Sequence record: PZ671982.1 | From: a phage | Strand: one strand, 5' to 3' | DNA: 43,947 bases | The notes under the pieces: model-generated | Database searches by the model: none | The model's input: only the letters and a program-made list of their open reading frames with translations | What the model was told of the DNA's origin: nothing | Made by a program: the position numbers and the translations under genes | Part shown: positions 3,491-42,357 of the stretch, piece by piece | Numbering within the stretch: position 1 is the first letter of the stretch | How the letters are laid out: each line of letters starts with the position of its first letter

Positions 3491-4577
3491 TCAATATATG
3501 GCGGATCGATTGATTCGCCGACACATCTTCACCCAGCGCCTGAGTAATGACCAGGCGCGAAGGGTGCTGTCCATGTGGGAGAAGTTCCGGCCCACTTTAC
3601 TGGGTAAGTTGACCGAGTTGCTTGATGGCAAATCGTCAATGAACAACAAGGCACTTTCCACCCTGCTAACGCAACTCGATAAGACAGTTAAAGCAGAATT
3701 GCGCACCGAGTTTAAGTTGTTGGCTGAAAGCCTTCAGGAGTTTGCCGACACCGAGGCCGATTATCTCACCGACACATTAACGGCAGCGATCCAGCCGGTG
3801 GTCGCCGTACCTGCGGTCGAGGTGGTGGGCGTAGTGACCGGTGCGCAGATCGCAGCGACGGCTATGAAAAACCCGTTCCAGGGTAATACGATGACGCAAT
3901 GGCCCGACTCACTTTCCGAGTGGACCAGGACGCAGATCGGGAATCAGGTGCGCGCTGGATTCATCCAGGGCAAGCCAACGATGGAAATTATAGCGGACGT
4001 GAGGCGCGCGCTCGGCGGTCGTAGTGCGCAAGCTATCTCAAGCGTTGTTAAGTCCGCAGTCAACCACTATGCAGCGACGGCCCGCGAACTAATGGTGAAA
4101 GCAAATGACGATATTCTCGAAGGTCGCCAGTGGTTATCTACATTGGACACGCATACTTCTCCCATGTGCCAGCTACGCGATCGCCTGTTTTATCCGGTTG
4201 ATGTTACTCCCAACACCAAAGGAAAGCGCGGCGGGAAAGTGGTGGCTGGATCACAATATGGCGCTGGTCCGGGCAAGTTGCATTATTGTTGCCGGTCGAC
4301 GGAGACGTGGAAGGTTAAAGGCATGGAAGATTGGCCCAGTGGTAAACGTCCGGCACTGAAGGCTGACGCGGGTCGATTGCTGAGTGAGCAGGTTGACGCG
4401 CAGACTGATTTCTTCTCATGGGTGCAGCGCCAGCCGCGCCATATCCTGGAAGAATTATATGGCGTGCAACGCGCCGACCAGATTATGCGCGGCGTGAAAG
4501 TGCCGAAGATGTTTACCGATTCTGGCGAACTGATGACTATTGCGAAGCTTAAAAACCGGGGGTTATGGCGTGATTAA
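3474..4577 (+). CDS. head morphogenesis protein (MuF / SPP1 gp7-like)
   Basis: 367 aa, overlaps portal stop; position and size typical of minor head protein after portal. Confidence 0.55.
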   Translation: MAKTINQYMADRLIRRHIFTQRLSNDQARRVLSMWEKFRPTLLGKLTELLDGKSSMNNKALSTLLTQLDKTVKAELRTEFKLLAESLQEFADTEADYLTDTLTAAIQPVVAVPAVEVVGVVTGAQIAATAMKNPFQGNTMTQWPDSLSEWTRTQIGNQVRAGFIQGKPTMEIIADVRRALGGRSAQAISSVVKSAVNHYAATARELMVKANDDILEGRQWLSTLDTHTSPMCQLRDRLFYPVDVTPNTKGKRGGKVVAGSQYGAGPGKLHYCCRSTETWKVKGMEDWPSGKRPALKADAGRLLSEQVDAQTDFFSWVQRQPRHILEELYGVQRADQIMRGVKVPKMFTDSGELMTIAKLKNRGLWRD

Positions 4578-4899
4578 ATATGCGGCTATTGGACTGGTTA
4601 TCGGTCTGGCGGTGGGATTCTGGCTAGGTGACTCCTATCGCGCTGGCGTAGTGGCGGAGGCGGCGCAAGAAGCGCAAGCCAAAGCCCAACGGCAGCAAAC
4701 TAAAGTTGTTGAGCGCTCCGTGCAGGCCGAACAGGCCCGCGACGTGGAATACCGGACTATCACGAAAGAGGTTGTAAAATATGTTACGCGCCCTAACCGC
4801 CCTGATTGTAGTTTTGATGCTGAGCGCGTGCGGATCAAGCAACGTGCCGTTGATGCCGCCAACGGAGTCGGCACTGCGACCGCCGTGCAAGTTCGATAA
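4570..4899 (+). CDS. i-spanin (Rz-like), probable GTG start
   Basis: N-terminal TMD IKYAAIGLVIGLAVGFWLG followed by Ala/Gln/Glu-rich coiled-coil-like region; GGGGG RBS 7 nt before GTG 4570; contains embedded o-spanin gene in another frame. Confidence 0.5.
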   Translation: MIKYAAIGLVIGLAVGFWLGDSYRAGVVAEAAQEAQAKAQRQQTKVVERSVQAEQARDVEYRTITKEVVKYVTRPNRPDCSFDAERVRIKQRAVDAANGVGTATAVQVR

Positions 4900-5011
4900 C
4901 CCGTCTGCGGACCCCGACGAGGATTTGATGATTGACGTGAAAAATATGGAATGCGGGGCTAAGCTAAGGGCGCAGGTGCTGGAGTTGCAGCAAATAATTA
5001 AGGGGCCGTAA
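4781..5011 (+). CDS. o-spanin (Rz1-like outer-membrane lipoprotein)
   Basis: 76 aa; signal peptide with lipobox LMLSAC, Pro-rich mature part; starts inside the Rz-like ORF in a different frame and extends past it (overlapped spanin architecture). Confidence 0.6.
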   Translation: MLRALTALIVVLMLSACGSSNVPLMPPTESALRPPCKFDNPSADPDEDLMIDVKNMECGAKLRAQVLELQQIIKGP

Positions 5012-5022
5012 TGGCCCCTTTT
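5002..5022 (+). terminator. rho-independent terminator (GGGGCC-gtaat-GGCCCC + T run)
   Basis: Perfect 6-bp GC stem, 5-nt loop, TTTT immediately 3'. Confidence 0.6.
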
Positions 5023-5077
5023 CGTCAGTCTCATTTTTGTGTCCTCGTTGTTGGGGCTTTCGCCCCGTTTGGTTTAG

Positions 5078-5485
5078 TTAAAGTGCTTCAAGAATCTCGT
5101 AAAACTTATTCGCCAGCGCCTGGCGACGTTCGAATTTCTCAGTGATAACCAATTCAGGGCGGTTAAATCTCTTTGCGTGTATGTTCCAATTGTGGATTTC
5201 CGTTTCCATTATTTTCTTACGGTTATAGTCGGTGTTTTTGATGCTAAATTCCTTGATAGCGTTGTTAAGAAAATCAGTCATATACTCAATGTCGGATATC
5301 GTAACTTCGAACGTGCGGGCTTCTATTCCGCTATTGGTGCGAAGTACGACGACGCCGCCGTGGTAGGTGTCGACTACCATATACTTGTAAGTCACCCCGT
5401 CCCACTCCGGATCGAAAGGGCGACCAAATACGTCGTCGGCTTTCCAGACTTTCAGGTACGGTGTTTCTTTGATTAATGTTGGCAT
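5078..5485 (-). CDS. hypothetical protein, antisense AT-rich island gene
   Basis: 135 aa from ATG 5485 (RBS AAGGAAA); uninterrupted ORF in visibly AT-richer DNA, opposite strand to flanking head genes; own promoter-like element upstream. Confidence 0.6.
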   Translation of the reverse strand: MPTLIKETPYLKVWKADDVFGRPFDPEWDGVTYKYMVVDTYHGGVVVLRTNSGIEARTFEVTISDIEYMTDFLNNAIKEFSIKNTDYNRKKIMETEIHNWNIHAKRFNRPELVITEKFERRQALANKFYEILEAL

Positions 5486-5520
5486 CTTGTTTTCCTTCAT
5501 ATCTCTGTTGGTGTGCAACC

Positions 5521-5550
5521 AATATAGCGCAACCAACTCCAGCGAGGCAA
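5521..5550 (-). promoter_or_regulatory. sigma70-like promoter for 5078..5485 (TTGCCT-18-TATATT) containing TTGGTTGCA motif
   Basis: On - strand: TTGCCT, 18-nt spacer, TATATT, then GGTTGCACACCAACA identical to the element upstream of 38927. Confidence 0.4.
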
Positions 5551-5557
5551 GCGAATT

Positions 5558-5585
5558 TTGCGATTATTTTTATCGCTGATAATAT
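5558..5585 (+). promoter_or_regulatory. sigma70-like promoter for scaffold/capsid operon (TTGCGA-16-TAATAT)
   Basis: Hexamers read directly; back-to-back with the - strand promoter. Confidence 0.4.
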
Positions 5586-5639
5586 TAAGGCGTGAAGTCA
5601 AGCGGGTGGCCCGCTTTGCCACAATCCCAGGGGGATAGC

Positions 5640-6344
5640 ATGAAACTTACTAAAGCAGAATATGACGCGTTGCCGGAAGGTATGAAGGCGCTTTTTGTTG
5701 CCGATGGTGACGGGTATAAATCAACGTTCATGACCGCCGAAGAAGTGCAGGCGGAGATCAAGGGTCTGAAAGACAACAACGCGAAGCTGGTGAGCGAGAA
5801 GAAAGCAGAAGCCGAACGCCGCGCCGAAGCTGAGCGCCTTGCGAAAGAGAAAGAGGAAGCCGCCGCGCGCAAAAATGGCGACCTAGAAGCGATCGATAAG
5901 TCCTGGAAAGATAAGTTCGCAAAACATGAAGCGGACACATCGGGGAAAATCGAAGCCTACCGCAAGCAGATTCATGACCTAACCATCGGCAGCGCTGCCA
6001 AAGACCTGGCGTCGAAGCTGTTCGGTAAGAATGCCGGCATCATGCAGCGTCACGTTATGGACCGCCTGGCGCTGGAAGACGGCGAAGACGGCAGCCTGAA
6101 GGTGCGAGTATTAAAGGATGGCAAACCGTCCGCTCTGACGATGGACGAACTGGAAAAAGAGTTCCGTAGTAACGCAGATTTCGCATCTGTCCTGGCTGGC
6201 ACGCCAGCCGGTGGTGCGCCGAGCAAACCGACACAGGTCGTCGAAGATGTGAAGTCGAAAATCACTATGGGCCATAGCTTCGGTATCACTGACTTGACGA
6301 AACAGGCAGGGGATATCATTGCTAAAATGGGCGACGACGAGTAA
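5640..6344 (+). CDS. scaffolding protein (putative)
   Basis: Start at ATG 5640 (RBS GGGGGA); highly charged K/E/A-rich coiled-coil-like sequence immediately upstream of major capsid gene. Confidence 0.6.
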   Translation: MKLTKAEYDALPEGMKALFVADGDGYKSTFMTAEEVQAEIKGLKDNNAKLVSEKKAEAERRAEAERLAKEKEEAAARKNGDLEAIDKSWKDKFAKHEADTSGKIEAYRKQIHDLTIGSAAKDLASKLFGKNAGIMQRHVMDRLALEDGEDGSLKVRVLKDGKPSALTMDELEKEFRSNADFASVLAGTPAGGAPSKPTQVVEDVKSKITMGHSFGITDLTKQAGDIIAKMGDDE

Positions 6345-20365: not shown

Positions 20366-20390
20366 CTAAAGCCCCGCCAGGGGCTTTAAT
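20366..20390. terminator. bidirectional terminator (AAAGCCCC-gcca-GGGGCTTT) between convergent genes
   Basis: Perfect stem flanked by A run 5' and T run 3'. Confidence 0.55.
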
Positions 20391-21321
20391 ACATGTTGGG
20401 AAGGTACGGCAGCAGAGTTGGGATCGTAACGTCGGGTCTGTTGCCGATTTCGTACCTTACAATTCGTGAGCCAGTTCCCGACCTTACATATCCGCCGCTC
20501 ATAACCACGCCTTTGTTTCTTAGTTCCTTGTAGGCGGGTATAGCCCTTGTATTGAACCCACACCTTAGTATTGGGAAGTAGGAGTCACCAATATACTGAT
20601 TGCTACCCGACAGACTTATAAACCCAGACACAATAAGTGGTCTGGTAACTGTTGAAAGTGTACAGGCGCCTTTGTGGTTAAATATGTTTAACCCCGGCCC
20701 CGGCACGGGCGCAACCATCTGGAAAATAACCAAATCCATAGTAACACTTCCGGGTGTGTGCCCGGTATCATTTGTGTTTATGTTTGTGCATATCAACCGA
20801 TTAACACCGTCGTACTCAACTGAAACACCAGAATTATCCCACCTGCCGAACGGTATGCCGTATATTGGAAGGGTGTAACTATCATGGAATGATATAGTTT
20901 GAGCAAATTTGCAGACAAGCAACCTGTCAGTTGTGGTTATCGATGTGAAATCCGTGCTGTCGGCAACGTAAAGCCCCTGCCCTGTCGATGACCTAAGAAC
21001 CTCAACTACAGTCCCTGAAAACTGCGTTACGCGGTCTGGATAGCCGTTCTCATAGCCAATAGATATTGTTCCGCTGGATTCTGTTGAAGAAAAGCCCTTT
21101 ATATAATAAACCTCAACACCACGATCTAGTTCGAAGGAGTATGCGCCATTGTTCGGCAGAAGAAACCTTGAAGCCCCTTCATTACCTTGAATAGGGAATG
21201 ACTTGCTAAACCCGCCACTTGAAACATTGAAGTTCCCCGCAAAATTCAAGGCACGCATACCCGCGGTGATTGTCATCGGGTTGCGTCCGTCATTAAGATC
21301 AATGTAGATACCTTGTGCCAT
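20386..21321 (-). CDS. hypothetical 311-aa Gly/Ser/Thr/Asn-rich protein; candidate receptor-binding protein
   Basis: Long uninterrupted - strand ORF in AT-richer DNA, ATG 21321 overlapping upstream lipoprotein stop (TAATG); no signal peptide; beta-rich composition. Confidence 0.5.
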   Translation of the reverse strand: MAQGIYIDLNDGRNPMTITAGMRALNFAGNFNVSSGGFSKSFPIQGNEGASRFLLPNNGAYSFELDRGVEVYYIKGFSSTESSGTISIGYENGYPDRVTQFSGTVVEVLRSSTGQGLYVADSTDFTSITTTDRLLVCKFAQTISFHDSYTLPIYGIPFGRWDNSGVSVEYDGVNRLICTNINTNDTGHTPGSVTMDLVIFQMVAPVPGPGLNIFNHKGACTLSTVTRPLIVSGFISLSGSNQYIGDSYFPILRCGFNTRAIPAYKELRNKGVVMSGGYVRSGTGSRIVRYEIGNRPDVTIPTLLPYLPNMY

Positions 21322-21551
21322 TAGTTCCACTCCCGAGAGCCATAATCACGAACTGAGCCACCATGCCCTTTAATTCCGTCATAACGAATATCAACTTCAC
21401 CCGCCGGAACAACTACACCGCCTTTCCATTTAGCTACACATACGCCGCTTGCTTGTGTCGCGCACCAACCATCCGGACGCGGGCCAGAAGAGCAACCAAC
21501 AGCCACACCCACAACCACGGCAATGATTGCAGATTTGATTAAAGTTTTCAT
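21321..21551 (-). CDS. small lipoprotein (76 aa), candidate Llp/Cor-type superinfection-exclusion protein
   Basis: ATG 21551 with RBS GGAG; signal peptide with lipobox VAVGC; Cys-containing mature part. Confidence 0.6.
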
Positions 21552-21582: not shown

Positions 21583-21610
21583 GTATTACACCGCTCGATC
21601 AAGAATGCAA
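21583..21610 (-). promoter_or_regulatory. sigma70-like promoter (TTGCAT-16-TAATAC) for lipoprotein operon
   Basis: Hexamers read on - strand; -35 is part of ATTGGTTGCAT motif. Confidence 0.4.
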
Positions 21611-21631
21611 CCAATTTATGAGGATTTAGCT

Positions 21632-24639: not shown

Positions 24640-24669
24640 ACTATAGTGCAACCAACCTATTGGTTGCAA
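24640..24669 (-). promoter_or_regulatory. sigma70-like promoter (TTGCAA-18-TATAGT) inside a perfect TGCAACCAA/TTGGTTGCA palindrome
   Basis: Read on - strand; followed by 5' UTR hairpin GGGGGC-ggtatt-GCCCCC (24611..24634). Confidence 0.35.
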
Positions 24670-25348: not shown

Positions 25349-25814
25349 GTAGCTCACTCTCGCTCATTATTTCAATTTGTGCGCTGCCGGTGGGTGGCGC
25401 TTCGTCAAAGATTATCAATTGCTGGCACTTGTTATTGCTCGGCCCGACTTCACCGGTCACAGCATGTATAAATCGGATACGCCAGTCCAGAAGAATTATC
25501 AGGTTTGCAGTCTTCCGGGCCAGCTTCGCCCACTTCGTCGACGTGTCCTGATTCAGTAGCATGACGGTCCGGCGTCCGTGCGCTGCGCACTCGACCCACG
25601 GCAGCGGATCGGAATACGGCGGGTTGCACCACTTCCACCCTTCCAACTCTGACCAGTCCGCATCGAGCGCGCTGTGCTCCGCCGTGAAGTAACGCGGTAG
25701 CAGGTGGTTGGCATCGCTCGCCGCCATGTCATAACGGAATCGGTACTTCCGGCGCAGCGGTTTAAATAAAGCTGGCGGCGTGCGCCAGCTATCTTTTTGC
25801 TCATTCTTCTGCAT
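25329..25814 (-). CDS. DNA N6-adenine methyltransferase (phage Dam-type)
   Basis: 161 aa with WRTPPALF, DMAASDANH and catalytic NPPY motifs characteristic of small phage Dam enzymes. Confidence 0.75.
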   Translation of the reverse strand: MQKNEQKDSWRTPPALFKPLRRKYRFRYDMAASDANHLLPRYFTAEHSALDADWSELEGWKWCNPPYSDPLPWVECAAHGRRTVMLLNQDTSTKWAKLARKTANLIILLDWRIRFIHAVTGEVGPSNNKCQQLIIFDEAPPTGSAQIEIMSESELHEYLNR

Positions 25815-26259
25815 GATCTGGATCTATCGCGTACAGGGCAATTTTCTTATTACTGTTTAGAACGCGTTGCACGCGCTTTAATTCCTCGGTGCCGAGCGGT
25901 CGGCAGTCGGAGTAGTAAGACCCGTTCCCCCGCCACGCAACCAGCACCAGGTCTTTCCGGTCAATCTTAGACTGGCGGCCCTTCGGACGCACGTACTCCT
26001 CGGCCCGTTTGCAATGCTCACGCAGACCATCGGCAGTGATGCGGTTTAGTGCAACGCTGGTGGTGTATCCGGTGCGCTGCATAATCCCCATCAATTCGAA
26101 AAGCAGTTCGAAGCGCTCCTCTAGCTCCTGGCGCACTTTCTTCTCGCCCTCATATAGCGCCTGGTTGGTGTCCGCCAACGCGTTCGCACGTTCGGCTTGT
26201 TCGCGGGCTTCGAGGCATTGCGCGGCCCAGTAATTTTTCTCTTCTTGTAAAATTTTCAT
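25801..26259 (-). CDS. hypothetical protein with N-terminal coiled coil
   Basis: 152 aa, RBS GGAGA; strong promoter directly upstream. Confidence 0.5.
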   Translation of the reverse strand: MKILQEEKNYWAAQCLEAREQAERANALADTNQALYEGEKKVRQELEERFELLFELMGIMQRTGYTTSVALNRITADGLREHCKRAEEYVRPKGRQSKIDRKDLVLVAWRGNGSYYSDCRPLGTEELKRVQRVLNSNKKIALYAIDPDHAEE

Positions 26260-26306: not shown

Positions 26307-26335
26307 AATATAATGCAACCAATATGATTATGCAA
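26307..26335 (-). promoter_or_regulatory. sigma70-like promoter (TTGCAT-17-TATATT) built from tandem ATTGGTTGCAT motifs
   Basis: Read on - strand, about 40 nt upstream of ATG 26259. Confidence 0.5.
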
Positions 26336-26340
26336 CCAAT

Positions 26341-29042: not shown

Positions 29043-29071
29043 ACTATACTGTTAAGCGACCAATTCAGCAA
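29043..29071 (-). promoter_or_regulatory. sigma70-like promoter (TTGCTG-17-TATAGT) with ATTGGTTGC motif
   Basis: Read on - strand upstream of zinc-ribbon gene. Confidence 0.35.
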
Positions 29072-29330
29072 CCAATAAATCACAGTCGGCTATGTTGTCG
29101 ATAACGCGAACGTCCGCACCGCGGCGGGCCATTCGCTCATGTTCTCGTACCTGGTGCGGCTTCGGTTTGCCGCCGGGTCGCTTCACTTCGACGAAAACTA
29201 TCTTGCCGTTGATGATGATTATAAGGTCTGGCGCTCCCGCGCGCCCCTCCCATGCCACTTTACGGCAGAATCCGCCGACGGCTTTAACCAACTTCATAAG
29301 GTGACTTTGGATCTTGCCTTCTGGTGTCAT
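29052..29330 (-). CDS. VRR-NUC domain nuclease
   Basis: PDLIIIINGKIVFVEVKRPGGKPKPHQ matches the VRR-NUC PD-(D/E)xK signature; start ATG 29330 overlaps upstream stop (ATGA). Confidence 0.7.
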   Translation of the reverse strand: MTPEGKIQSHLMKLVKAVGGFCRKVAWEGRAGAPDLIIIINGKIVFVEVKRPGGKPKPHQVREHERMARRGADVRVIDNIADCDLLVAELVA

Positions 29331-32903: not shown

Positions 32904-32967
32904 TTTCCAATTCCTCATTTTACATGTATCGGGGTTATTGTAAGCCACCCCGTTCGGCTTGGTTGCT

Positions 32968-32996
32968 AATCTACTTGGTTGCGCCTAAGCGGTCAA
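32968..32996 (-). promoter_or_regulatory. sigma70-like promoter (TTGACC-17-TAGATT)
   Basis: Read on - strand about 60 nt upstream of ATG 32903; spacer contains CAACCAAG motif. Confidence 0.45.
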
Positions 32997-35541: not shown

Positions 35542-35570
35542 ATATTAAATTGGTTGCAGAAGGGAGTCAA
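35542..35570 (-). promoter_or_regulatory. leftward early promoter (TTGACT-17-TAATAT)
   Basis: Hexamers read on - strand; about 190-nt leader to ATG 35345. Confidence 0.5.
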
Positions 35571-38447: not shown

Positions 38448-38550
38448 ATTTTGCGCGCATTGGTTGCCATTTTGAGTGTTTTTAACTGGTCGCATTGGTT
38501 GCCGTGTAGTGTAAATATAGTGAATAGTTATGCAGTTTTATTGCATAAAG

Positions 38551-38710: not shown

Positions 38711-38869
38711 GCATAAAATCCTGGATTGCATAATACACGGCAGCACATTGGAAATCGCGGTCGTCGCTGAACTAGGCAACCAATGCGAGTTGCAGAACGG
38801 TTGGTGAAAATGCAGTTTGCAGTCACAGCAGATAGCGATCGACTTTTTCATGCGCGTGATTAATATTGG

Positions 38870-38898
38870 TTGCATCCATGCCCGCACCCTGCTATATT
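38870..38898 (+). promoter_or_regulatory. sigma70-like promoter (TTGCAT-17-TATATT) from tandem ATATTGGTTGCA motifs
   Basis: About 30 nt upstream of RBS AAGAGGA and ATG 38927. Confidence 0.5.
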
Positions 38899-38926
38899 GG
38901 TTGCACACCAACAAGAGGACTGAACG

Positions 38927-42316: not shown

Positions 42317-42357
42317 ATTGCTTGGCTTGCAACCAACCAATAAGAGGAGTAATCAAG

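Follow-up and report, generated by a model that had tools for sequence, protein, structure and literature searches.

The moron concept is said to go back to Hendrix and co-workers and to have been developed classically on lambdoid prophages. An initial annotation applied it to a minus-strand open reading frame (ORF) at positions 5078..5485 of the phage sequence PZ671982.1, the whole 43,947 nt of which were analysed and are referred to here as the window, and described this ORF as an AT-rich gene inserted, together with its own promoter, into the head-gene cluster. Two further points of comparison come from Dhillonviruses, namely the anti-Tmn protein of phage SM_S22 and the protein Nmad5, in which exchange of a Lys for Glu enables Dhillonviruses to evade the Tmn defence and the gene of which was cloned without success, apparently owing to toxicity (PMC11846954). 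Our analysis identifies the ORF as a genuine, dispensable accessory gene, which occupies the exchangeable position next to the promoter of a conserved antisense mini-operon within the head module. By analogy, its behaviour is that of accessory genes in hotspots of virulent phages, yet it matches no described anti-defence protein, and a role in host takeover or counter-defence is our best guess.

Like a lambdoid moron, the ORF is a single extra gene, predicted to be flanked by a promoter and a terminator and to be transcribed independently of the surrounding late operon; its GC content is below that of its neighbours, and it is present in some relatives and absent from others. In the relatives SECphi4 and SM_S22, which lack the gene, its flanks are adjacent, as they would be for a moron, and other relatives hold a different gene at this position. 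In contrast to lambdoid morons, promoter and terminator belong to the conserved slot, and the GC content at third codon positions (GC3) is not deviant. The carrier is moreover a Dhillonvirus, a group that we take to be virulent, so that there would be no lysogen to benefit from the gene. A joint arrival of gene and promoter does not fit the relatives, in which the same promoter precedes other cassettes or nmad5 alone.

The ORF is a genuine gene with ordinary GC3

The ORF lies between the spanin genes and the scaffold gene, as initially annotated, with both flanks assigned by PHROG matches, and runs on the minus strand from an ATG at 5485 to a stop at 5078. It encodes the homologue of HK578 gp06, a protein of 135 aa and 16.0 kDa (MPTLIKETPYLKVWKADDVFGRPFDPEWDG...). 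A ribosome-binding site of good quality, AAGGA (5493..5497, minus strand, sequence reading), stands 7 nt 5' of the ATG. Two longer forms were considered and rejected. In the ORF listing the frame (5078..5536, minus strand) opens at a TTG, which would give 152 aa, but this TTG is situated within the promoter and upstream of the -10, so that a transcript from the slot promoter would exclude it. The HK578 record gives a coding sequence at 5078..5500 that starts at an ATG 15 nt further upstream (5500) and adds the residues MKENK (window 5486-5500), resulting in 140 aa. In PTXU06, one additional base between both ATGs puts the upstream ATG out of frame, which indicates that 5485 is the conserved start. 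The ratio of nonsynonymous to synonymous substitution rates is 0.08 against HK578 and 0.13 against PTXU06; the ORF is under purifying selection and is a genuine gene.

With 44.6% GC against 54.3% for the genome, the ORF belongs to the lowest 0.5% of all 408-bp windows, and the observation that it is AT-richer than its neighbours is thus correct. The codon-usage comparison that had been suggested among the checks showed the deficit to be confined to codon positions 1 and 2, where the GC content at position 2 (0.30) is the minimum of all 54 genes, whereas GC3 (0.56, z = -0.58) is ordinary for this genome. The AT-richness therefore reflects the amino acid composition of the protein, which is rich in Lys, Asn, Ile, Phe, Tyr and Glu, and not a foreign codon usage. 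Compositional deviance holds for overall GC content and fails for synonymous positions, and low GC is poor evidence for a foreign origin when GC3 is normal. By synonymous composition, another ORF of the window is more clearly deviant: the 314-aa ORF at 20386-21330 (minus strand), past the tail genes, has a GC3 of 0.47, among the lowest seen in the window, and matches phrog_1265 ('membrane protein', moron/host-takeover category) with an E value of 8e-98.

The first gene of a conserved antisense slot is exchangeable

A 1.9-kb region around the gene has 96% identity to Escherichia phage HK578 (genus Dhillonvirus), with which the window also shares the gene order of terminase, portal, head morphogenesis protein, Rz/Rz1 spanins, antisense ORF, scaffold and major head protein. 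Matches to the region occur in 159 phage records, almost all from Dhillonvirus coliphages, only seven of which cover the entire query, and the gene itself is carried by seven of the approximately 159 matching Dhillonvirus records (~4%). The slot was compared and its promoter aligned in eight Dhillonviruses, in which the usual layout consists of promoter, variable first gene, hairpin, nmad5 and two-way terminator. Between the scaffold gene and the slot, all eight contain a minus-strand promoter of the form ...cgcTTGCnn-(variable 7-8 nt)-TTGGTTGCAn-TATATT-GGTTGCACACCAACA, the -35, -10 and downstream GGTTGCACACCAACA of which are kept regardless of the gene that follows. The two-way terminator beside Rz1, the TTGGTTGCA boxes of the promoter, the 5' leader and the downstream hairpin are likewise common to all eight.

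The first position of the slot is occupied by the 135-aa protein in HK578, the phage of the window, PTXU06, Zar3M and SM_W22, by a 170-aa protein of the EP23p08 type with a beta-clamp-like segment in about 16 close records, and by a protein of the SSL-2009a gp08 type (109-122 aa, phrog_24635) in about 61 records. SECphi4 and SM_S22 have no first-slot gene, and the promoter leads directly to nmad5. At least three cassettes are thus interchangeable, and the 135-aa gene is the rarest of the three that can be counted. The cassette is bounded by the stop codon (5079-5082) on one side and by the ribosome-binding site or leader (5476 or 5506) on the other. On the downstream side, window positions 5020-5082 are 95-100% identical to the intergenic region between the first-slot gene and nmad5 in EP23, SSL-2009a and PEC14, and on the upstream side the leader ATGAAGGAAAACAAGATG, which contains the ribosome-binding site, is shared with the unrelated SSL-2009a gp08-type cassette. 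An hhalign comparison with the family of the 135-aa protein showed no relation between these two occupants.

Promoter and terminator consequently belong to the slot, of which the gene is one exchangeable occupant. This contradicts the initial view of an insertion that brought its own promoter, since promoter, boxes, leader, hairpin and terminator are shared by the eight Dhillonviruses. The broader reading as a moron retains the accessory distribution, which had been listed among the features to be checked (7 of ~159 records), and the orientation antisense to the head genes, and loses its independent regulatory signals, which are conserved in eight of eight phages.

For one of the alternative occupants, the existing label deserves a comment. 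EP23 gp08 (Shigella phage EP23, 2872-3384 of the examined stretch) is named 'RusA-like Holliday junction resolvase' via phrog_3007, a name that looks like a propagated misannotation; EP23p08 instead weakly resembles the DNA polymerase III beta clamp, namely its central domain (PF02767, E 7e-4; phrog_947, E 9e-9). Cassettes of this type were found in about 249 phage records and are widespread in phages of Salmonella, Klebsiella and Escherichia.

The slot promoter belongs to a class shared with non-structural genes

The slot promoter was predicted by a consensus scan as a sigma-70-like promoter at 5521..5550 (minus strand) with the -35 TTGCCT (5550-5545), an 18-nt spacer and the -10 TATATT (5526-5521). 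Two direct TTGGTTGC(A) boxes occupy 5514..5536 (minus strand), of which one (5536-5529) lies directly upstream of the -10 and the other (5522-5514) overlaps the -10 and the likely start site. The promoter with a shared core that had been postulated for the gene is thus recovered, with two copies of TTGGTTGC. The core TTGGTTGCA occurs in 10 exact copies in the window, against 0.46 expected and in none of 100 shuffles reaching this number, and the 8-mer TTGGTTGC in 19 copies against 2.2 expected. Intergenic, promoter-like TTGGTTGC(A) sites are located at 5514-5536, 21606-21614, 24647-24668, 26314-26339, 29068-29075, 32959-32982, 35550-35558, 38460-38502, 38866-38905 and 42328-42336. The boxes are almost solely intergenic and found in the non-structural half of the genome, as single copies, as direct pairs 14-35 bp apart or as one inverted pair (24647-24668). 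Genes downstream of TTGGTTGCA boxes include a helicase, a helicase-primase, a methyltransferase/'ligase' block and other non-structural genes. An identical stretch of 23 nt, GCTATATTGGTTGCACACCAACA, is common to the slot promoter and to positions ~38890-38912 on the plus strand.

The placement of the TTGGTTGC(A) box relative to the -10 varies: it supplies the -35 (TTGCAT), abuts the -10, or overlaps the -10 and the start site. Such variability would be more in keeping with an operator for a phage regulator than with a simple promoter element, and the boxes are probably operator sites of this kind. The slot promoter is the sole motif-bearing promoter within the 20-kb structural block. Since it is of the class found before replication and DNA-metabolism genes, the 135-aa protein is most likely expressed early or in mid-infection. 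Literature searches for the TTGGTTGCA motif and for HK578 promoters returned nothing relevant.

A promoter of the same class, with two TTGGTTGCA boxes at 26314-26339, precedes a 152-aa ORF at 25801-26259 (minus strand). This ORF is termed 'DNA ligase' by phrog_10530 and is 79% identical to SM_S22 CDS0035, a gene that SM_A8 lacks at the same position and that agrees with anti-Tmn as described in the publication. From this absence we infer that CDS0035 is ORF35, and the ORF of the window then probably encodes a homologue of the anti-Tmn protein demonstrated by experiment (ORF35, PMC11846954); the name 'DNA ligase' is likely wrong for it. The promoter class shared with a probable anti-Tmn homologue provides circumstantial support for reading the first-slot gene as a counter-defence gene. 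The 135-aa protein resembles anti-Tmn of the Dhillonvirus SM_S22 (PMC11846954) in its presence and absence among near-identical phages, in being a small soluble protein and in a promoter class that matches that of the probable anti-Tmn homologue of the window. Its model begins with a sheet that is followed by helices, in contrast to anti-Tmn, in which N-terminal helices precede a three-stranded C-terminal sheet (PMC11846954). With this reversed domain order and no BLASTP alignment to SM_S22 CDS0035, we rejected the possibility that it is itself an anti-Tmn protein.

At the other end of the slot, a two-way hairpin terminator at 5000..5022 was predicted on both strands by folding and by a terminator scan, in agreement with the HK578 record, which annotates a terminator on both strands. 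The hairpin that had been proposed at 5002..5022 as the end of convergent transcription thus folds on both strands, with a U-run on the plus strand and a weaker AAUUAUUU tail on the minus strand. It is the predicted meeting point of the plus-strand head/spanin transcript and the minus-strand slot transcript, and serves in relatives as the shared terminator of Rz1 and nmad5. A second conserved hairpin, GGGGC-GAAA-GCCCC (5053..5066, minus strand, folding), is located in relatives between the first-slot gene and nmad5; the T-run that follows it on the plus strand makes it terminator-like in the terminator scan. An Rfam scan of 4800-5800 gave no match.

nmad5 has been deleted in this phage and in HK578

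The second gene of the slot, nmad5, occurs in almost every Dhillonvirus, encodes a product of 254 aa (EP23p07; PF18757, E 2e-58) and is full-length in 146 phage records. Window positions 5020-5079 are 100% identical to EP23 over the first 15 nt of nmad5 and the spacer that separates this gene from the first-slot gene, and positions 4500-5028 match up to the nmad5 stop region. Both matches overlap by 9 bp at the junction, which suggests that nmad5 was lost through a deletion between short repeats. A remnant at 5020..5046 (minus strand) retains the ribosome-binding site GAGGA (5046-5042), the ATG (5034-5032) and the codons MRLTK, with which EP23p07 also begins. It runs into the terminator hairpin and the antisense strand of Rz1, giving rise to a spurious 136-aa ORF (4624..5034, minus strand) antisense to Rz/Rz1. 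By sequence comparison, nmad5 is thus cleanly deleted in this phage and in HK578, and both are natural nmad5-null Dhillonviruses. The gene is retained downstream of the homologue of the 135-aa gene in PTXU06, Zar3M, SM_W22 and two IMG/VR contigs. A Dhillonvirus contig from IMG/VR carries a 99%-identical copy of the 135-aa gene with nmad5 still downstream, from which it follows that the loss is recent and specific to the HK578 lineage.

Nmad5 shares the operon with homologues of the 135-aa protein in relatives and differs from it in being an unrelated protein; PF18757 was matched neither by the 135-aa protein nor by its 24 relatives. In SM_S22, the annotated Nmad5 (CDS0006, 5005-6009 of the examined stretch) has 334 aa, so that the exchange is numbered K296E there and K216E in SM_A8. 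The annotation of CDS0006 overlaps the scaffold gene by about 200 nt, and the longer N-terminus looks like an over-extended start call and not like a real extension.

The left flank of the slot is formed by the spanin genes Rz (4570-4899, plus strand; phrog_2536, E 5e-37) and Rz1 (4781-5011, plus strand; phrog_5672, E 2e-26), which overlap each other, and the right flank by the head scaffolding protein gene (5640..6344, plus strand; phrog_206, E 5e-51; HK578 gp07), which is divergent from the slot promoter; the assignments of Rz and Rz1 agree with the HK578 annotation. The Rz/Rz1 pair (4570-5011, plus strand) closes the head-morphogenesis operon and is distant from the genes for holin and endolysin, located near the right genome end in the related phage SM_S22. 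The antisense slot converges on Rz/Rz1, and read-through from the slot promoter would yield RNA antisense to the spanin genes, which is made more likely by the loss of nmad5.

The protein belongs to a phage-confined family with a predicted compact two-part fold

Orthologues at the same locus and in the same orientation are HK578 gp06 (YP_007112613, 99.3% identity) and PTXU06 gp18 (92%), which do not differ in kind from the protein of the window and are annotated as hypothetical proteins. A word-indexed search of 5.8 billion proteins returned four clusters, and HMMER, run exhaustively with the first alignment against 1.84 billion representatives, added two true relatives (P0005, P0006); the candidates P0007-P0009 from this search were internally repetitive and were discounted as repeat-boosted artefacts. 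By tblastn, relatives with 52-55% identity were detected in six Serratia siphovirus records and in Erwinia phage Snitter (Drexlerviridae), and overall, homologues with 37-92% identity and lengths of 117-139 aa occur in several unrelated phage types, which likewise speaks for a genuine gene. A profile search yielded 24 clusters (E 1e-27 to 1e-64, 117-137 aa), all hypothetical and none fused to another domain, and the final profile search 47 clusters, again all hypothetical and some of only 89-101 aa, including a protein of the BASEL phage EduardKellenberger (Bas59; bas59_0129).

A remote homologue is gp159 of phage rV5 (ORF164, 139 aa), which was aligned by hhalign over 102 columns (probability 97%, E 1e-10) and shares the C-terminal ending ...R-[QN]-x-L-A-N-[KR]-x-x-E-I-Y-E-[AS]-L, in the rV5 form ...RN-DLANR-IYEIYESL. 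Hypothetical proteins of 139 aa represent this type in the rV5-like coliphages (Vequintavirinae), ESCO5 among them, and in rV5 the gene lies directly behind an annotated sigma-70 promoter, amid small early genes. Identity to rV5 gp159 and to phrog_12277 is only about 23-28%, with a poorly aligning N-terminal sheet region, and phrog_12277 was matched by 11 of 25 family members and not by the 135-aa protein itself. Based on these alignments, we assign the protein to a gp06 / rV5 gp159 family that overlaps phrog_12277. As the rV5 gp159 proteins are also uncharacterised, the link adds breadth and no function.

The genomic surroundings of the homologues vary. In Bigdog, the homologue follows the tail-tip J gene, and in Snitter, rV5 and Logan contigs, it is part of runs of small genes of early type. 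In an E217-like myovirus contig, an antisense island between tail and head genes begins with it, and in a contig with a P22-type portal, it is divergent from the terminase gene. An all-against-all comparison of the neighbours within 2.5 kb at 11 loci detected no gene that accompanies the family. No copy was found among 72,556 plasmids (tblastn), 5,426 complete E. coli genomes (blastn) and 185,579 species-representative genomes (pattern scan). On these comparisons, the family is a single-gene module that is horizontally mobile among unrelated Enterobacterales phages and confined to phages. The named phages that carry it are, as we assume, all virulent.

In accordance with the initial statement that the protein has no assignable motif, it matched no family in Pfam, PHROGs, NCBIfam or PADLOC, apart from sub-threshold chance matches (TUG-UBL1, DUF6266). 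A Pfam scan of all 25 family members gave hits to 17 families with one member each, as is the case for chance matches, and a profile search of the PDB gave nothing meaningful. Structure prediction, which had been recommended as a check, was informative with respect to the fold, whereas the relatives found by Foldseek were all uncharacterised. The AlphaFold2 model from the 24-cluster alignment has a predicted local distance difference test score (pLDDT) of 90.5 and a predicted template modelling score (pTM) of 0.72. It consists of an N-terminal four-stranded sheet (strands 3-7, 11-20, 33-39 and 45-50), a short helix (53-57) and three C-terminal helices (65-81, 93-106 and 121-134). A Foldseek search against BFVD gave as sole good matches an uncharacterised protein of ESCO5 (A0A1D8EQL2, 139 aa, template modelling score 0.63) and one of nieznany (77 aa). 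The C-terminal helical part ends in the near-invariant motif F-x-R-R-Q-x-L-A-N-K-F-x-E-I-x-E-A-L, and K34, D39, T50, N84, N101, R121, E130 and the hydrophobic face of the last helix are invariant in the family. The sequence contains no signal peptide, lipobox or hydrophobic segment. The product is soluble and near-neutral (pI 5.9), its predicted fold is compact and consists of two parts, and it shows no enzyme signatures, no membrane segments and not the charge of a nucleic-acid mimic; neither its sequence nor its fold matches a described member of the known anti-defence proteins or defence-system components. The copy in SM_W22 (PP920555, 2501-3019 of the examined stretch) has 172 aa because 37 residues (RKKIMETEILNWNTHAKLFNRPELVITEKFERRQAL), spanning helix 2 and the start of helix 3, are duplicated in tandem, perfectly and in frame.

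Possible functions of the first-slot protein

We propose that, early in infection, the protein may bind or inhibit a host protein stoichiometrically and on its own. With nmad5 gone, it would be the only product of the slot operon in this phage and in HK578, and its expression early or in mid-infection would be driven by the sigma-70-type promoter with the TTGGTTGCA boxes. The host target would most probably be a component of a strain-specific anti-phage defence and less probably a housekeeping protein, since presence in about 4% of the genus and replacement by unrelated cassettes point to a strain-specific target, for example a defence system, rather than to a universal one. We consider a binding or inhibiting mechanism as such to be possible, with a chance slightly short of even, and counter-defence specifically as a more tentative proposal. 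Similarly tentative, with doubt outweighing confidence, is the joint proposal that gp06 and rV5 gp159 represent a new, horizontally spread counter-defence or host-takeover family that would act alone via its invariant C-terminal helix, and that the slot is a general plug-in site for genes of this kind, which a common early promoter under TTGGTTGCA regulation would drive. The family extends over Dhillonvirus, Drexlerviridae, Serratia siphoviruses, P22-type and E217-type contigs and rV5-like myoviruses, and its members are usually the first gene of early-type runs or lie within them.

Several considerations weigh against the binder mechanism and its counter-defence role. Target and phenotype are hypothetical and the transcript is predicted, and the early timing is taken from the promoter class alone. 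The invariant polar residues would equally fit a small-molecule binder or a small enzyme, and the operon shared with nmad5 in relatives makes a role in nucleotide or DNA modification possible. To conclude on anti-defence from a location in a hotspot would moreover be guilt by association, as many such genes have other roles.

The same evidence that suggests counter-defence also fits an action on a housekeeping host protein, for example in transcription, replication, division or proteolysis, instead of the immune system. A distant homologue is apparently widespread in rV5-like phages behind an annotated sigma-70 early promoter, and a gene kept so widely within one lineage would suggest a benefit of a general kind. 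The restriction to about 4% of the Dhillonviruses and the replacement by unrelated cassettes are better explained by a strain-specific target, and we therefore consider a housekeeping target unlikely.

Less probable still is a function as helper or modulator of the Nmad5 nucleotide/DNA-modification pathway, in which the protein would bind a ligand, a substrate or a regulator and HK578 and the phage of the window would keep a remnant of the pathway. The gene occurs without nmad5 in both of these phages, more than 90% of the nmad5-bearing Dhillonviruses lack it, and outside Dhillonvirus no nmad5 was found within 4-6 kb of any family member. In addition, the protein has no match to Nmad or to another Pfam family, and a match to MnmE was below a convincing level.

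The accessory distribution, the hotspot location and the early-type promoter would be equally well accounted for if the protein acted early and in the cytoplasm to block satellites or phages that co-infect or superinfect, and virulent phages carry exclusion genes. Many classical exclusion proteins (Cor, Llp, Imm, Sp) typically have a signal peptide, a lipobox or a hydrophobic segment, all of which are lacking here, and no PADLOC model of a defence system was matched. A function in competition between phages seems to us as improbable as the assistance of Nmad5.

Autoregulation by binding of the protein to the TTGGTTGCA boxes, two of which lie in its own promoter, would be compatible with the helical C-terminal part of the AlphaFold2 model. 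The boxes are invariant in EP23, SECphi4, SSL-2009a and PEC14, all of which lack the gene, so that the regulator must be encoded elsewhere; the protein has no match to a helix-turn-helix family, and its pI is near neutral. By its distribution alone, this possibility is close to refuted, and we regard it as very improbable. Equally hard to maintain is the notion of a non-functional chance ORF, a decaying remnant or a head-assembly component, for which the position inside the head module and the directly adjacent deletion in HK578 and this phage could be cited, in view of the purifying selection, the conservation of length and C-terminal motif in distant phages, the confident fold prediction, the absence from ~95% of Dhillonvirus records, which still assemble heads, the orientation opposite to the head genes and the lack of a PHROG match.

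Significance for Dhillonvirus biology

HK578 gp06 is already contained in GenBank as a hypothetical protein. Literature searches gave no mention of the gene or its accession numbers, and in a paper on Tai systems HK578 serves solely as a test phage. The anatomy of the slot, the natural deletion of nmad5, the TTGGTTGCA promoter class, the link between gp06 and rV5 gp159 / phrog_12277 and the confident fold without a solved relative are not described in the literature searched. If the function should turn out to be mundane, an ordinary hypothetical accessory gene would remain, by which a specialist would not be surprised. If instead our best explanation is true, the small, soluble, single-gene product would be a ready candidate for counter-defence screens. 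It is present in the well-used laboratory phage HK578, with the distant homologue in the rV5-like BASEL phage EduardKellenberger, and near-identical Dhillonviruses with a different cassette or none provide natural controls.

Dhillonviruses are already being engineered against the Tmn defence (PMC11846954). With its fixed promoter, leader and terminator, the slot tolerates unrelated inserts as well as the loss of nmad5, which makes it a natural site for engineered payloads in these phages. As nmad5-null Dhillonviruses, HK578 and the phage of the window also bear on the function of Nmad5 and on the way in which Tmn detects infection.

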